A DNA stretch of 64,000 nt, taken from the NCBI GenBank assembly GCA_028286905.1, contig JAQBQP010000001.1, positions 143,114 to 207,113 of the forward strand, read 5' to 3'. The notes under the pieces were generated by a model that did not search any database, was not told the DNA's origin, and saw only the letters and a program-made list of their open reading frames with translations. Position numbers and translations under genes: made by a program. The DNA comes from Candidatus Doudnabacteria bacterium (lineage in GTDB: Bacteria > Patescibacteriota > Doudnabacteria > UBA920 > VMFF01). Shown here piece by piece: positions 5,401 to 53,543 of the stretch (position 1 is the stretch's first letter; every line of letters starts with the position of its first letter).

Positions 5401-5875
5401 TCCCTCTAGCAGGTTCTGCTGTGAAGAAAACTCCGGGAGACTTTATTAACTGTGAGACAACAACACGCTCCACACCATTAATTACGAATGTCGCGCGTGG
5501 TGTCATCAATGGAAAATCACCAAAATAAACATCTTGGGTCTTAGTTTTTCCAGTAATTTTGTTTACTAACTTTACGCTGCAGTACAATGGTGCTTCGTAA
5601 GTAGTATTTCTTTCTCTTGCGGTCTTCTCGTCATACTTTGGTTTGTCCAAGAAGTAATCGCCAAAAAACATTTCCAGGTTTTTGCCTGTGAAATCTTTGA
5701 TCGGAGTAATTTCTGTTAACAACTCCTTCAAACCTTTTTCAAAGAACCACTTATATGAGTTCAGCTGAGACTCAATAAGATGAGGAACTCCGGTAACCTC
5801 GCGCAAAGTTGTAAAAAACTTTCTAGGATTCTCCGCAGTTCTCGCAGAAACTAACAAACTTCCTTTTTTTGACAT
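2429..5875 (-). CDS. rpoB: DNA-directed RNA polymerase subunit beta
   Basis: 1148-aa ORF with recognisable RpoB conserved blocks. rpoB-rpoC order on the same strand. Confidence 0.95.
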
Positions 5876-13826: not shown

Positions 13827-13956
13827 ACATAACCACTATCGTCAGCTCCTTGACTTTTAGACGTATTTATGATACTATGGTGGATACCTAATTTTAAGGT
13901 ATTCCACGCGTCGCAAGGCGCTTAGCACGTTCACAATGTCTGGGAGGACTACACAG

Positions 13957-15132
13957 ATGTTTAAGATTCGACCCAACACTCGCGTTCGCGCGGCTATTGC
14001 CATCCTGGCATTAGCCCCAGTCTTGACAGCATGCAACAGCGAGGGTGTCACCGGTGTCAGCGCCAACCCGCCGACCTACCCCGGACCCGCCGGACCGACG
14101 ATCCCTAAGAAGACCTGCTCCGACGATCCGACCACAGGACAGCCCTGCATCAACGGCTATCCCTGGAGCAGCGTCGGCGCGATCGACCTGCCAAACGCGG
14201 TAACCGCGATGCTGGTCACCCCCGATGACAAGACCGCCTACGTCGGCGAGGGCAACCTCGTTCAACAGTATGCGGTTTTGACGGACAGCCTTCCGGCCGT
14301 TCGCCTCCAGGCTGTCGGCTCTCCGATCGGGATCGCCAGCAATGGGCGGCAATTCACGCTCTGCAACGGCCAGATCACCGCTCCGTACGGCACCAGCGGC
14401 ATCAGCATGATCGACCCTGCAACACAGACGTCGATCACTCTGCCGACGCTGACCAACAACAAGATCAGCAGCCTATCGTGCTCTCCAGGGAATTCAATCC
14501 TGGTGATAACCGATACGAACGGCGCAGTGCTCCGGTACAACTACGCAACAAAGACGACGCTTCCGATTATTCGCGACACAACGCGAATGGGAGTGCCTGC
14601 CTTCGCCGCGCAGAACCCATCCGGCACCGCTTTCATCGCTGCGAACTTCTCGGAGCGATACCAGAGCGGACAAATCGGGGTAAACTCGCCGATGCTGATC
14701 AGCCTCACGAACAGCAACACCAACGGAGTGTACTTCCCATCAAGCGGCGCGGCACTGCCAATCAACGGCGTGACGTACGGCAGCTGGGCCGCGACCATCT
14801 CCGAAGACAAAAACCTTCGTGTGTATGATGCGGTGCTTCCCAACGGCCAGTTTCCGGAACACTGCATGATGCCGCTTCCGGGGATACCTACCACCGTGAC
14901 AGCCGCCGACAACAGCAACCTCCTCGCAGTCGGCGTCCCGTTTAGCGCCACCGGCAATAAGGTGATCATCTATCGCGCCAACCCTGGCCGCCAGGCAGGC
15001 TGCGACAAGATCTTCGAGGCCGACAATTCCGTCGCGAACTCGCCGATCAAGGCGCTGCACTTCAGCGCTTCTGGTGCACACCTCTTTGTCGCCAGCGGCA
15101 ATCGAATCATCGTACTGGTCGCGAACAAGTAA
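13957..15132 (+). CDS. putative secreted lipoprotein (GC-rich islet), probable beta-propeller/repeat protein
   Basis: GGGAGGA SD 8 nt upstream of ATG 13957. MFKIRPNTRVRAAIAILALAPVLTAC is a signal peptide with an LTAC lipobox. About 62% GC against a roughly 38% background. The track ORF starts at 13936. Confidence 0.5.
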   Translation: MFKIRPNTRVRAAIAILALAPVLTACNSEGVTGVSANPPTYPGPAGPTIPKKTCSDDPTTGQPCINGYPWSSVGAIDLPNAVTAMLVTPDDKTAYVGEGNLVQQYAVLTDSLPAVRLQAVGSPIGIASNGRQFTLCNGQITAPYGTSGISMIDPATQTSITLPTLTNNKISSLSCSPGNSILVITDTNGAVLRYNYATKTTLPIIRDTTRMGVPAFAAQNPSGTAFIAANFSERYQSGQIGVNSPMLISLTNSNTNGVYFPSSGAALPINGVTYGSWAATISEDKNLRVYDAVLPNGQFPEHCMMPLPGIPTTVTAADNSNLLAVGVPFSATGNKVIIYRANPGRQAGCDKIFEADNSVANSPIKALHFSASGAHLFVASGNRIIVLVANK

Positions 15133-40607: not shown

Positions 40608-40683
40608 TGGTGGGCACGCCAGGACTCGAACCTGGGACCAGTTGTGTATAAGACAACCGCTCTACCAACTGAGCTACGTGCCC
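40608..40683 (-). tRNA. tRNA with anticodon UAU (Ile, AUA decoder), CCA encoded
   Basis: Hand-folded cloverleaf GGGCACG/CGUGCCC acceptor, D arm GCUC...GAGC, anticodon arm GUUGU-CUUAUAC-ACAAC, T arm CCAGG-UUCGAGU-CCUGG. Confidence 0.7.
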
Positions 40684-44848: not shown

Positions 44849-45424
44849 TTATTCAGAGTCCGTTCGGGTTAAAGGTTCGAGATCAATACCACAGAGCGTA
44901 CAATAGCCTTCGTACTGAAGAAAAATTGCGCGCGGGTGACCAGCTCGGCACTCGATCATTCGATGGTGTGCCAGGCTCCTGCCGTTCAGCGCCAAGAAGA
45001 CTTTGTGTGCGAAATGCGCGTTCTTTTCACCGCAGCATTCGCAGAATCGGCAATCGGCTTGGACCTGCTCACCGCACGAAGGCTCTTCGCACAAGGTGGT
45101 TTGTCCATACTGCCCGAGAGCGTAGAGGTGTCCCCTCAATGTATCGTGATTAGGCGCGTTCGCGGTGTCGCCAGCCGCTTGCTCAAGCTCTTGGATTTTT
45201 TTCTCAACGAAGGCATTTGATTTTTTCAGCCGGCTAGCAATAACCGCTGATTCAATCCCTTCAGAATGCATTCGAAGAATAAGAAAATCTTCGGCTGGAA
45301 TTGTTCGCGCCAGTTCCCAGCACTTTCGACTGAGTTCCTGGAAGAGCATCTCAATCTCATCATCGAGAAGAGAGTCCTGGTCGTCCTCATTGTTCTCCTC
45401 GGGTTCGGGGTCTATCCAAGTCAT
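44849..45424 (-). CDS. sigma-70 region-4-like HTH + zinc-ribbon protein, paralogue 1 (GC-rich islet)
   Basis: Start MTWIDPEPEE overlaps the upstream stop as ATGA. Sigma4-like FLILRMHSEGIESAVIASRL. C-terminal CxxCG...CxxCG, GHP, GYCxLCG. The stop is embedded in a terminator hairpin. Confidence 0.5.
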   Translation of the reverse strand: MTWIDPEPEENNEDDQDSLLDDEIEMLFQELSRKCWELARTIPAEDFLILRMHSEGIESAVIASRLKKSNAFVEKKIQELEQAAGDTANAPNHDTLRGHLYALGQYGQTTLCEEPSCGEQVQADCRFCECCGEKNAHFAHKVFLALNGRSLAHHRMIECRAGHPRAIFLQYEGYCTLCGIDLEPLTRTDSE

Positions 45425-46077
45425 AATTCCTCGTCGTTTTCGAATTGCCCAAGGATCGGCGCGAGATCTGTGCCGCACAGATTGCAATACCCGACGCACC
45501 GATACTTAATCGCTATTGGGTGGCCAACATGGCATTCACCAGCGCACTCTTCTTCATATGAGTTGCCTCGTACTTGAAGAAAGATCCGAGCGTCGAACTC
45601 GCTATTTGGCTTACCGCACTGGACGCAGTACTTAAGGTCTTCGTGCTGGAAAAAGCCGCAATTTGAACAGCGAGTTTGATAGCCGTATTCAGCTAAGGCA
45701 TGCATTGCTTCATCAAGGTTTGGCACCCAACGCAGCAGGTGTACAGTGGCAATGCGTTCTGCCGAGGCGCGAACCCCGGCAATTTCCTCAGGCGTAATAC
45801 TCAGCCTGTTTGCAATTTGATCTTCCGACAGAAATGTCAGTAGCCGAAGGATCAAAAACGCGTCTTCTCTAAGCAAGGCTGCCGCTGCAGCCGCTCGCTC
45901 CCGTACAATCTGCTCGTTCTTTTCTGCGCGCTTGAATTTCTCGAATGTTTGGGGTTGTCCAGGTTCTGCCCCTGTCGACTCGTCTGACTTGAAGATTTTG
46001 AACGAATCTGAGTGTATTCCCTCGGGGTTCCAGGCGTTGTCGTCTGAATTTTCCCAAGGATCTCTTTCCTTTTTCAT
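45421..46077 (-). CDS. sigma-70 region-4-like HTH + zinc-ribbon protein, paralogue 2 (GC-rich islet)
   Basis: GGAGG SD 4 nt before MKKERDPW. Acidic N-terminus. Sigma4-like LREDAFLILRLLTFLSEDQIANRLSITPEEIAGVRASAERI. C-terminal CSNCG...CVQCG, ECAGECHVGHP, GYCNLCG. Confidence 0.5.
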   Translation of the reverse strand: MKKERDPWENSDDNAWNPEGIHSDSFKIFKSDESTGAEPGQPQTFEKFKRAEKNEQIVRERAAAAAALLREDAFLILRLLTFLSEDQIANRLSITPEEIAGVRASAERIATVHLLRWVPNLDEAMHALAEYGYQTRCSNCGFFQHEDLKYCVQCGKPNSEFDARIFLQVRGNSYEEECAGECHVGHPIAIKYRCVGYCNLCGTDLAPILGQFENDEEL

Positions 46078-46125
46078 ACATCCTCCGGGAAGTTGGTTGA
46101 ATCTAGTATACATCCATTAAAACCT

Positions 46126-46155
46126 CTTGCCAAAGACCCTGCCTTCGCCTATACT
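46126..46155 (-). promoter_or_regulatory. sigma70-type promoter for the paralogue pair (minus strand TTGGCA-17-TATACT)
   Basis: Seen in sequence in the AT-rich flank upstream of paralogue 2. Confidence 0.4.
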
Positions 46156-46296
46156 ACCACTACTTAATGACTCGGCGCGTTAACTCAATAATTAACAATT
46201 CATTAAGTCTTAGAAATAAGCGCGCTATTAAGAATTAACCAATTAAATAGATTTTCTAAATCTATCTCAGGTTAATTCTGGGATTTTATTATATAT

Positions 46297-47528: not shown

Positions 47529-47831
47529 TTATATTTCTAACCCCTGATTGATTTTTAAAAGTTTTTCAAAATTGTCATTCGGAGATGTTTTATTATTTTT
47601 TTCGTAACCACAAATAGTGCATTGGTGTTTGATTACATATTCACCATTTTTAAGAAATACTTGAACTGGTTTCATTAAGCCACCACAGCTACTAGCTCTA
47701 TCTCCGGGGTTAATATCTACGTGCTTGCTGTATAAGCAATTAGGGCAATGGTTGGTATAACCATCTCCTTTTACTAGATTGTTGCAATGCTCGCAAGTGA
47801 AGTTTTCAATTTTTCTGGTGAACTTTTTCAT
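47529..47831 (-). CDS. RNHCP-domain zinc-ribbon protein
   Basis: FTCEHCN...YTNHCPNC...CTICG, matching the RNHCP motif family. Confidence 0.45.
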   Translation of the reverse strand: MKKFTRKIENFTCEHCNNLVKGDGYTNHCPNCLYSKHVDINPGDRASSCGGLMKPVQVFLKNGEYVIKHQCTICGYEKNNKTSPNDNFEKLLKINQGLEI

Positions 47832-47951: not shown

Positions 47952-48980
47952 TTACAGGATTTCGAGTTTTCGAGTGTTCATGTCCACTACCGCCGTGAGA
48001 ACTTCGAGATGTTTGAGCAGATCAGGCGTGTGAGCTTCGATTACGTCCCGTGCGTATGCGCTTAGGAACTTCGTCTTTTCAATTGCCAATTGGCGATCTG
48101 GACCTACCGGCTTGCGGTAAGCTGCGGAGGTCATCAAGACCAAACCATCTGCGCCGTTAACCCTGCCGGAGACGATGTTGTCCTGAAGCAGAATTGCCGC
48201 AGTCTTGATTGGTCCAGTTATGTCCGGTGAGTATGGGCCGACAAGAAAAGCGGCGTTGATCTCGTGTAGCCAATCGAACCCACTGCCGATACCAATCATC
48301 CACTCCTTGTGTTCTACTTCGGAGTTCGGGCGGTTCGATGCACGTATTTCCTTGATGTGCTTGAGGTTTCCTGCCAACAGCGGCAAAAAATCCGTTTGCA
48401 CTTGTTCAGGCATCGATGGGTACAGGCGCTTGATCAGGTCCTTTAATTCTGCGGATGACGCCGTTTCGTTCAGTTCGGACAGGTCGACACGTTCGCCATT
48501 TTCTCCGTGGAGGATTAGTGCATCCAGGTCGGTTTCGATTCCGCAGACAATTGAGGTTACAGCCTGACCTTTGAAGACAGTACTAATCTGTTGCTTCAGG
48601 GTGGCCATCTCCAAAAGTGCGGCGTCGGTGTTATAGTCGAAGCCTCTGCAACCGCGGTGTGCGTCTCCTCTGGAGAAATGGTAGGTTACCAAGACTAAAC
48701 ACGGTCTTGCTCGGCTGATTGCGTAGGATACCCATTCGTTGAGAGTGGTTTGGAAGTGAGCCCAGCCCAAGTTAAACCGACCACCGAGATTTCGGAACGG
48801 TCGGATTATGCCCAACGGAGTTTGTGTGATTATCGGCAAGTGAAGCCTGCCGTCCATGCATTTCAGCACGGCGATTTCCGTTGGATGCTGGCTGCGGTAC
48901 AAACTGCGATCCAGTGCTTGGTTGAGGAAGCTGGTTGAGCTACTTGCATTCAAATCAACGAGGTGTTTTATCCTATTCAA
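47952..48980 (-). CDS. hypothetical protein with beta-carbonic-anhydrase-like zinc-site motifs plus a roughly 140-aa C-terminal extension (GC-rich islet)
   Basis: TTG start with GGAGA SD at 6 nt. CMDGR (CxDxR), FRNLGG about 20 aa later (compare beta-CA VRNAGN), and HRGC (HxxC) about 67 aa after the first Cys. Confidence 0.4.
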   Translation of the reverse strand: MNRIKHLVDLNASSSTSFLNQALDRSLYRSQHPTEIAVLKCMDGRLHLPIITQTPLGIIRPFRNLGGRFNLGWAHFQTTLNEWVSYAISRARPCLVLVTYHFSRGDAHRGCRGFDYNTDAALLEMATLKQQISTVFKGQAVTSIVCGIETDLDALILHGENGERVDLSELNETASSAELKDLIKRLYPSMPEQVQTDFLPLLAGNLKHIKEIRASNRPNSEVEHKEWMIGIGSGFDWLHEINAAFLVGPYSPDITGPIKTAAILLQDNIVSGRVNGADGLVLMTSAAYRKPVGPDRQLAIEKTKFLSAYARDVIEAHTPDLLKHLEVLTAVVDMNTRKLEIL

Positions 48981-50277: not shown

Positions 50278-50868
50278 TCATGCAATTTGCGGTAAGCCAG
50301 CAATGTGAAGGCGACGGAGCTGGGCAATATGTCTCACGATCTTGCCCATTAAGGTGTGGTGGATCCATTCCGGGGTATCCTTCGCGTTTACCAGCAAATA
50401 CCGGCCTTTTGGGTAGCGGGTTTTGCTAGCTACCAGGGCTTGCTCCTCTTTGGCGTAGTGGGCCATCACTTCACGGCCTCCTTTGCCATCGATCAGAAAG
50501 ACCACGGCCATTCCTTGCTCGTTAAGGAATTGAGCGTCCTTTAGGAGCTGGCCACAGCTACTGTCACAGAGGTCCACTATTGCAATAGATTCTGCACCCA
50601 AGCTCCCCTCGGCTACCAGCTCGGCTATGCCGGGGTGAACAGGCAGTGAAGGTTCCTTGCAAACCCTTTGCACAAAGATCGTGGTGAATCTCCCTATGTG
50701 CGGGTCGGTGGGAAGCTTAGCGATATCATCGCTTAGCCTCTTAAGGACTTTCATGTGGGCTCGCGAGGATGGCGATTCGGAGATGATTAGGATGACGCGT
50801 TCGCGGGCGCGCCTTTCTGGGTTCTCTCCACTGCGGGGTGTGATCCGCCGGTCGGAAAGCATCGACAT
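50278..50868 (-). CDS. hypothetical alpha/beta protein (GC-rich islet)
   Basis: GGAGGAG SD 6-7 nt before MSMLSDRR. Alternating hydrophobic strands (RVILIISES, IAIVDLCDSSCG, MAVVFLIDGKGG) suggest a Rossmann/flavodoxin-like fold. Family not recognised. Confidence 0.35.
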   Translation of the reverse strand: MSMLSDRRITPRSGENPERRARERVILIISESPSSRAHMKVLKRLSDDIAKLPTDPHIGRFTTIFVQRVCKEPSLPVHPGIAELVAEGSLGAESIAIVDLCDSSCGQLLKDAQFLNEQGMAVVFLIDGKGGREVMAHYAKEEQALVASKTRYPKGRYLLVNAKDTPEWIHHTLMGKIVRHIAQLRRLHIAGLPQIA

Positions 50869-51041
50869 TTGTAACTCCTCCTGAGAGTTCCATGTATACA
50901 TCGCACGGCAACCCCTAGGTTGCTACTTGCTGCGTGCTGCTTACTACTTACATTAAATACCTTAACAAAAGAAAAGACCTTACGGAAGATCGTCAAGGCC
51001 TTTTTTCGTGGACATGTTATGGATAACCTGTTGGTTAGCTG

Positions 51042-52821: not shown

Positions 52822-53543
52822 TCAGGCGTGTGCCAGGATGACCTGCACCTTCTTGATCGCGGCGATGGACAGCGGGCAGACGATCTCGTCGGCCCCGATC
52901 ATCTCGTCGATCTCCTCCTGGGTGAAGAAGTCGACCTTGTAGATCTTCTCCTTCTCGTCAGGGTTCTGCTTGCCGAGCCGGTCTTCGTCGACCCGTGCCA
53001 GGAAGATCGGGGTGTAGCCGCAGATGAAAGTGGTGTTGCCTGCAACGATCTGCCCGATCTTCTCGCAGCTGAGCAGCGGGCCCCCGATCTCCTCACCGCC
53101 TTCACGCATGGCGGTCTCCTTCGTGGTTTCGCCTGCTTCGGCATGCCGCGGGGAACTTCCCAGAGTCCGGTGCCGAACTTGGAGAAGTCGGTTGGTGGGT
53201 AGGAGTAGTCATCCGGGTTCGCCACTGCGGGACGGTCAACCTTGACTAGACCGATACGCTCCTTCGAGTCGACGACCATGGTAATGGCGCCGATGTTCTC
53301 GAAATGCAGAGGCTGGTCCCACAGCGGGGTGCCATCGTCCTTGCAGATGGCGACGTGCACGAGCTGCCCGATCCCCTTCGTGTGCTCGAAGACGATGTCA
53401 GTGTTGGGGTTGGAGTCTTCGGTGCTGTACAAGTACCAGCCACGAAGGGGGCGCTTCTCGCCGTTTCTCTTGGCCTGTTCGTACAAGACGGGAGTGCCGT
53501 AAAAGAACTGGCTTGCTACCTGTGAGAATGGGACGACCTTCAT
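52822..53543 (-). pseudogene. Nudix hydrolase, frame-disrupted within the Nudix box (GC-rich islet)
   Basis: Frame A (from 53543) ends ...FGTGLWEVPRG, then runs into an Arg/Ser-rich stretch that does not look like real coding sequence. The frame shifted by one nucleotide continues ...HAEAGETTKETAMREGGEEIGGPLL..., a perfect Gx5Ex7REUxEExGU Nudix signature. A single-nucleotide frame change near 53140-53155 joins the two frames. Confidence 0.5.

Follow-up and report, generated by a model that had tools for sequence, protein, structure and literature searches.

Paralogous genes beside rpsA in Candidatus Doudnabacteria combine a predicted sigma-region-4-type fold with a divergent metal-binding module

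Bacteria of the candidate phyla radiation (CPR)/Patescibacteria have small genomes with few recognisable regulators, and their lineage-specific genes, among them many orphan families, are mostly blank. Two genes that we call A and B adjoin each other on the minus strand next to rpsA in a 64,000-nt stretch (the window) of contig JAQBQP010000001.1, from a metagenome-assembled genome of Candidatus Doudnabacteria, and the question is what they encode. In the databases A is labelled 'hypothetical protein JWO40_169' and B is JWO40_168. An earlier reading of the DNA letters (the original prediction) had proposed two proteins of 218 and 191 aa, each with a helix-turn-helix (HTH) resembling region 4 of sigma-70 and a zinc-ribbon module. 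Both open reading frames (ORFs) are present, and fold comparison and the metal ligands indicate that this reading of the domains was largely correct. Throughout, X denotes the gene family in its slot (A, B and their relatives), P-numbers denote proteins and L-numbers related loci or genomes. We conclude with high confidence that A and B are a self-contained unit of two translationally coupled genes, delimited by a promoter and a terminator of its own, and that they are paralogues belonging to an unannotated, subclade-restricted family of the Doudnabacteria. A blank gene now has a confident fold, a defined set of metal ligands, a transcription unit and a history of insertion, duplication, differential loss and very fast divergence.

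Domain architecture of A and B

A and B have their architecture in common and, judged from sequence, are true paralogues: a BLASTP alignment of 145 aa shows 34% identity (E=1e-19). A search of the rest of the window gave no further paralogues. The start of A was placed at 46077 rather than at the upstream ATG at 46113, because it is conserved in an alignment of promoter, Shine-Dalgarno (SD) sequence and ATG from six genomes, and the N-terminus of B (MTW...) is the same as that of P0006 and P0007 in the family alignment. Both N-termini are acidic, as had been predicted: the 42 N-terminal residues of A have a net charge of -5 and the 23 of B one of -11. The disordered tail of A contains the motif PWEN..D.AW.PEG, which in the family takes the pattern W-[ED]-x3-5-W-[KR]-G.

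An AlphaFold2 model of A, built with the family alignment, had a mean predicted local distance difference test score (pLDDT) of 87, rising above 94 for residues 45-210, and in this predicted model the HTH is a four-helix fold that can be superposed on sigma region 4. Families of the sigma4/LuxR type lead the Foldseek ranking against the PDB below significance, no match being found at E<=0.001; the fold matches include the complex of sigmaA region 4 with ORF67 (rank 45) and, through its sigma chain, the SigL4-RslA complex. When the HTH alignment was compared by hhalign with a four-sequence sigma4/LuxR template (RpoE, RpoD, GerE and NarL), the probability was 84.8% and the pairwise E value 6.6e-6 over 49 columns in the expected register. 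Sequence hints below threshold point the same way: FliA region 4 (E=0.07), LuxR DNA-binding domains (E=0.16-0.3) and an NCBIfam sigma factor model (E=0.12). When the sequences of the PDB were searched with A, B and the profiles, all matches lay below threshold, and the top match of one search, a 'CAP repeat', was set aside as a designed repeat protein. Nothing rose above threshold when A and B were compared with the hidden Markov models (HMMs) of Pfam, NCBIfam, PHROGs and PADLOC. The hhalign comparison, its template having been put together by hand, counts as support only, and the assignment has to be weighed against the fact that the Pfam models Sigma70_r4, Sigma70_r4_2 and GerE do not match A or B at E<=10, and that the 25 families with the most frequent matches to 44 relatives include no sigma4 or GerE model. 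Thus, the profile matches that had been named beforehand as a check of the domains did not appear for Sigma70_r4 or GerE, and those for the ribbons lay below the gathering score. It is the fold of the predicted model, and not any curated HMM, that assigns the HTH to the sigma4/LuxR superfamily.

The C-terminal half of each protein carries eight putative metal ligands in two sites, with two helices between the knuckles and sites in the AlphaFold2 model. All eight ligands are invariant among the nine full-length members aligned. Across 44 sequences C140, C154, H186, C198 and C201 do not vary, and conservation is at least 90% at C137, C151 and C182 and at the insert residues N158, F161 and F166. 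The peptides cited in the original prediction are all present, but in B the first knuckle reads C-x4-C (LCEEPSCG) and not CxxC. Pfam DZR scored 13.6 bits against A and 11.7 bits against B, with a gathering cut-off of 27.3, whereas 32 of the 44 relatives match it at E<=0.1 (best 5e-8). Because the relatives score better than A and B do, the module can be placed as a divergent relative of DZR; we regard the metal-binding module as real, and from sequence it is a divergent DZR-type double ribbon with a helical insert specific to the family. Two metal ions are expected in the predicted module, the first bound by four Cys and the second by Cys-His-Cys-Cys.

Comparison with known systems shows that the parts are familiar. 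The HTH of A and B is of the same fold type as region 4 of the extracytoplasmic function (ECF) sigma factors, such as Escherichia coli SigmaE, Mycobacterium tuberculosis SigL and Pseudomonas aeruginosa AlgU. In contrast to the sigma-70 family, A and B have neither region 2 nor region 3: the HTH lies between the disordered acidic tail and the metal module, Sigma70_r2 has no match in either protein (Pfam, NCBIfam), and half of a protein of only 191-218 aa is metal module. The basic recognition-helix residues with which sigma region 4 reads the -35 element are not kept. DNA-binding domains of the LuxR/FixJ/GerE type (EL222, GerE, NarL, VraR) differ in that A and B lack a receiver or ligand domain and a GerE HMM match, are acidic proteins with a neutral recognition helix, and have a two-metal module at the C-terminus instead of the sensor that usually forms the N-terminus. 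The CxxC...CxxCG knuckles resemble those of Pfam DZR and zinc ribbons (PF12773, PF13240, PF13248), but the second site is C-x3-H...C-x2-C, and the sites are split by a conserved helical insert (N..F....F....G.sL.E...EC..GHP). The zinc-containing anti-sigma (ZAS) proteins RsrA, RslA and ChrR are likewise small cytoplasmic Cys/His metal proteins, which work on sigma region 4. A and B differ from them in having no H-x3-C-x2-C motif, no zf-HC2 match and no ECF sigma gene beside them (rpsA and a gene of the metallo-beta-lactamase (MBL) fold are the neighbours), and in having the sigma4-like domain in the same polypeptide as the metal module. The claim that the arrangement is neither that of a sigma factor nor that of a known anti-sigma factor therefore holds: lacking region 2, A and B are not sigma factors, and lacking the HxxxCxxC motif and an ECF sigma partner, they are not ZAS anti-sigma factors. 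Two further candidates were rejected. DksA/TraR gave no HMM match and the model has no long antiparallel coiled coil, and in MqsA-type antitoxins the domain order is reversed, with the zinc ribbon first and an XRE HTH last, the HTH of A and B being of the sigma4/LuxR type and no locus read having a toxin-like neighbour.

Transcription unit, slot and family history

The promoter and SD sequence proposed for A were recovered by pattern scan and by reading, and both are conserved in six genomes (Table 1). The TTGGCAAG and TATAAT-like hexamers of the promoter are kept across the six in alignment, and CCCGGAGGA precedes the ATG in the window (W), L011, L008 and L010, with GGAGGA in L001 and L003. 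The promoter stands back to back with that of rpsA, so that the two -35 hexamers overlap on opposite strands (TTGCCAA/TTGGCAA). The ATGA overlap of the A stop and B start is seen directly in the sequence (45424-45421), with GAGGA at 45432-45428, 3 nt upstream of the B start. The predicted terminator hairpin around the B stop was also found, and an equivalent (stop codon in the loop, then a U tract) occurs in seven of seven genomes, that is in the window and in all six relatives folded, although the stem sequence differs among them. The downstream MBL-fold gene has conserved TAAAAT/AAGGA signals of its own, and A-B is therefore an insulated unit.

Table 1. Positions of the features discussed, numbered from the first letter of the window
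Feature	Position	Strand	Details and basis
Gene A	45421-46077	-	218 aa; ATG at 46077 (MKKERD...), TGA at 45421; P0001
Gene B	44849-45424	-	191 aa; ATG at 45424 (MTWIDPEP...), TAA at 44849; P0002
A residues 1-42, disordered acidic tail with conserved Trp motif	45952..46077	-	pLDDT 56-61; family alignment
A residues 43-114, predicted four-helix sigma-region-4/LuxR-type HTH	45736..45951	-	helices 43-66, 71-79, 85-92, 96-113
B residues ~16-88, same HTH domain (FLILRM...VIASRL)	45161..45379	-	BLASTP register with A; alignment
A residues 134-205, predicted two-metal module	45463..45678	-	sites C137, C140, C151, C154 / C182, H186, C198, C201
B residues 109-182, predicted two-metal module	44879..45100	-	C112, C117, C128, C131 / C159, H163, C175, C178; alignments
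ATGA, A stop overlapping B start	45421..45424	-	read from sequence
A-B promoter TTGGCA-17-TATACT	46105..46133	-	pattern scan, 10/12; alignment
Divergent rpsA promoter TTGCCA-17-TATACT	46127..46155	+	scan; hexamers inside invariant alignment blocks, six genomes
Shine-Dalgarno GGAGGA of gene A	46081..46086	-	read from sequence; conservation
Intrinsic terminator hairpin, TAA stop in loop	44839..44865	-	scan; folding z=-4.85
GC-rich islet, 398-aa lipoprotein-like beta-propeller	13936-15132	+	
GC-rich islet, CsoSCA-like 342-aa protein	47952-48980	-	
GC-rich islet, 207-aa orphan	50278-50901	-	
GC-rich islet, possibly frameshifted ORF pair (95 + 214 aa)	52822-53543	-	

Two observations concern rpsA itself. 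Behind its promoter (the two together at window 46127-46296) lies a leader of ~140 nt that has many TTAAT/ATTAA repeats, hardly varies among six genomes and may serve to control rpsA. Next to the start codon of rpsA, L008 (~2692-2770) and L010 (~5705-5790) carry an insertion of ~75 bp that is absent from the window and resembles a miniature mobile element, with direct repeats TTCGCTCGCTC around a palindrome (ATTATGCAAGCATAAT).

Relatives of A and B are few. A word-indexed homologue search with A returned A itself only, and with a nine-member profile five proteins only. An exhaustive profile search covering 1.84 billion representatives gave seven more full-length proteins (181-235 aa), which together with A, B and two from a follow-up make a family of 11 full-length members. 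It also gave about forty short relatives (85-135 aa) consisting of the C-terminal module only; a few relatives fuse the module to another HTH (LS..E..iL.rWA.GdD..SVA..FG). No description of this domain combination or of the tail motif was found in the literature and libraries searched, and the family seems to be undescribed, narrowly distributed and built from known parts.

In every full-length member with a readable contig, X occupies the same slot: it is divergent from rpsA and is followed by the MBL-fold (Lactamase_B_3) gene, a small ORF and gyrA. A tandem pair occurs on one other contig (P0011 + P0010) and the remaining genomes have a single copy, so the pair arrangement is not the rule. 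With the MBL-fold protein as anchor for a locus search among GTDB species representatives, 38 loci were found that keep divergent rpsA, MBL gene and gyrA without X (Doudnabacteria, some labelled Saccharibacteria, and Moranbacteria), and in most of them the slot is 320-520 bp and AT-rich. The synteny of these 38 species, together with the single slot in carriers, indicates that X is an old subclade-specific insertion and not a recent island; X has been inherited together with its flanks and is old within its subclade. The earlier suggestion that the genes were brought in with a GC-rich islet is upheld as far as X is an insertion relative to these 38 species, but not further, since it is old, lies in the same place everywhere and is GC-rich in all carriers.

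A neighbour-joining tree groups A with P0004 and B with P0006, from which it follows that A and B arose by duplication before the window, L007 and L008 lineages parted, with differential loss afterwards; P0010 and P0011 are mutually closest, and this second pair is either independent or homogenised. Family X would thus have been inserted into the ancient intergenic region between rpsA and MBL-gyrA and duplicated, one copy later being lost in several lineages. By tblastn, no decayed A-type copy was found in the 600-bp gap between rpsA and X of L007, nor were remnants found in other loci. That gap does contain a 200-bp stretch of 56-62% GC (L007 5703-5900), without detectable similarity to A-type proteins; it could be what is left of a gene, or something different. 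In other Doudnabacteria species without X, the slot between rpsA and the MBL gene holds another small ORF family (L023 3566-3826, L032 3543-3827, L039 3619-3879, L042 3654-3872) of 72-94 aa, ~50% GC and Cys-rich composition (...C.G.V[VI]P...ANP...IC..CG...), with no significant similarity to X (E 0.2-0.9).

X has diverged far more than its surroundings. X protein identity is 23-39% in most genome comparisons (52% for L001/L003 and 66% for L001/L012), against 71-97% for S1, MBL and GyrA. Synonymous sites of the flanks are saturated in most genome pairs, and in such pairs the nonsynonymous divergence (dN) of 0.4-0.8 in X, compared with 0.02-0.14 in the flanks, is a contrast of constraint. The ratio to synonymous divergence (dN/dS) is ~0.14-0.16 for X and 0.02-0.05 for the neighbours, which on this sequence basis places X under purifying selection. 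In the closest pair, L001 versus L012/L013, dS is 1.45 in X, 5-7 times the value of 0.19-0.28 in the flanks, and DNA identity falls in the X coding sequence only, the intergenic region between rpsA and X being 97-100% identical. Old alleles exchanged through recombination in the conserved flanks could account for this divergence, as could mutation or conversion that is locally raised and GC-biased. A mechanism of the diversity-generating retroelement type was rejected, as the divergence is not limited to a C-terminal variable repeat but extends over the entire coding sequence, and the neighbourhoods read contain no reverse transcriptase gene.

Candidate functions

We tentatively favour a protein-contact role in transcription, with A and B as mimics or competitors of sigma region 4, over operator binding. 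The proteins are acidic, with an isoelectric point (pI) of 4.3-5.0 in eight of nine members. Among the same nine, the HTH domain has a net charge of -4 to +2 and the recognition helix one of -2 to +2, and the DNA-reading positions of that helix are unconserved while the hydrophobic scaffold (FLILRL, EIA.RL) is conserved. DNA binding by the sigma4-like module, as formerly envisaged, thus finds no support in the charge or the conservation of the recognition helix. The sole candidate operator nearby, the intergenic region between rpsA and X, is almost invariant while the recognition helix varies freely, and the conserved Trp-acidic-Trp-Lys-Gly short linear motif lies in the disordered tail and looks like a docking peptide. 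It is the combination of acidic proteins, a neutral and unconserved recognition helix, invariant intergenic DNA and the tail motif that speaks for protein contact.

As a protein-contact regulator, A or B would be a small cytoplasmic protein whose sigma4-like domain serves as a contact surface and not as an operator reader. This domain could occupy or compete for the site of sigma region 4, either on the RNA polymerase beta-flap or on a sigma4-binding partner. The metal module would be a rigid platform and possibly a thiol switch; docking or auto-inhibition would fall to the acidic Trp tail as a peptide, and A and B may work as a heterodimer where both exist. Should the sigma4-like domain act in this way, it would represent a novel mode of RNA polymerase modulation. 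Counting against the proposal, DNA binding is the usual expectation for an HTH protein, and no partner gene is conserved beside the full-length family or the distant module-only homologues.

A classical DNA-binding regulator is a doubtful alternative, though the one closest to protein contact in probability. The LuxR/GerE-like HTH would read an operator, the metal module would dimerise the protein (as an A-B heterodimer in genomes with two copies) and the acidic tail would contact RNA polymerase. An HTH with a zinc ribbon is, by general knowledge, a common regulator layout, and the intergenic region that the gene adjoins is highly conserved and contains TTAAT-rich repeats. However, the neutral or acidic, unconserved recognition helix and the low pI of the whole protein are at odds with such a role, and where the adjoining intergenic DNA is 97-100% identical the X proteins are 66% identical, so that operator and reader do not co-vary.

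It is unlikely that A and B are primarily a thiol- or metal-based stress switch, in which seven Cys and one His would bind Zn or Fe, release it on oxidation and so alter HTH activity. The logic would be analogous to that of RsrA, Hsp33 and WhiB-type proteins, and could be combined with either protein contact or DNA binding. The eight invariant ligands are consistent with it, as are weak sequence matches of the rubredoxin/rubrerythrin type and the position of two module-only proteins, P0027 and P0025, beside or near a Fe/Mn superoxide dismutase gene (L015 7001-8056; L017 4467-7303) in unrelated genomes of 60% and 43% GC. Yet CxxC...CxxC knuckles are mostly structural, two other distant homologues have no superoxide dismutase neighbour, the loci read show no redox gene linked to full-length members, and the ZAS motif HxxxCxxC is absent.

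The rate of divergence brings in a conflict-driven decoy, which we consider improbable: a free sigma4-like domain would trap phage proteins aimed at the host sigma region 4, of the AsiA or G1 ORF67 type, or would take part in another arms race. Such a role would explain the very fast evolution of X relative to its neighbours, and divergence confined exactly to the coding sequence, the synonymous excess over the flanks in the closest pair and the sigmaA region 4/ORF67 complex among the fold matches all agree with it. Against this, the dN/dS of X means that there is no gene-wide positive selection, no PADLOC or PHROG match was significant, and the neighbours are housekeeping genes rather than a defence island. 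That A and B are a recently transferred islet, or decaying or spurious ORFs, is already largely refuted and scarcely credible: their GC content (50-51%, against 40% for the window) and the absence of X from the 38 more distant species with the same synteny are outweighed by a slot, promoter and terminator alike in all carriers despite saturated flank synonymous sites between most of them, by the invariant ligands and a dN/dS of ~0.15, and by the lack of an outside donor pool among the 1.84 billion representatives, in which the full-length matches with readable contigs all lie in the slot.

GC-rich slots and other observations in the window

The high GC content of X is a property of every carrier genome (51-53% GC, with GC at third codon positions (GC3) of 0.50-0.59), whereas its neighbours have a GC3 of 0.30-0.47 in six of seven genomes and 0.44-0.50 in the GC-richer L007. 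Within the window, four further one-gene islets reach 51-61% GC and a GC3 of up to 0.75 in a genome of 40% GC (Table 1), and they behave similarly to X. Unrelated GC-rich genes fill the slot of the 207-aa islet in related genomes and, from genome to genome, the slot beside the FdtA-like gene; in L008 and L011 a different GC-rich gene stands in place of that for the CsoSCA-like 342-aa protein. Such GC-rich, hyper-divergent slots offer a testable handle on accessory gene turnover in streamlined episymbiont genomes.

A joint reading is speculative and rather unlikely to hold in full: free-standing sigma4 mimics that compete with the housekeeping sigma factor at the RNA polymerase beta-flap, protect it there or trap proteins aimed at sigma region 4 would be coupled with GC-rich hyper-divergent cassette slots, X being one of several, that lie between AT-rich housekeeping genes of high conservation and arise from a local GC-biased process that raises diversity. 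If true, the mimics would be a class of regulator so far undescribed, in a lineage with very few regulators, and the process behind the cassette slots, which would act on CPR accessory genes, might for instance be biased gene conversion at a recombination hot spot, or alleles being replaced repeatedly.

Two other genes of the window are recorded here. Directly downstream of rpsA, a Cys-rich RNHCP-domain protein of 100 aa is encoded at 47529-47831 (-), a position conserved in most related loci. A tRNA-Ile gene with anticodon TAT lies at 40608-40683 (-); an isoleucine tRNA with a UAU anticodon is the less common bacterial way of reading AUA.

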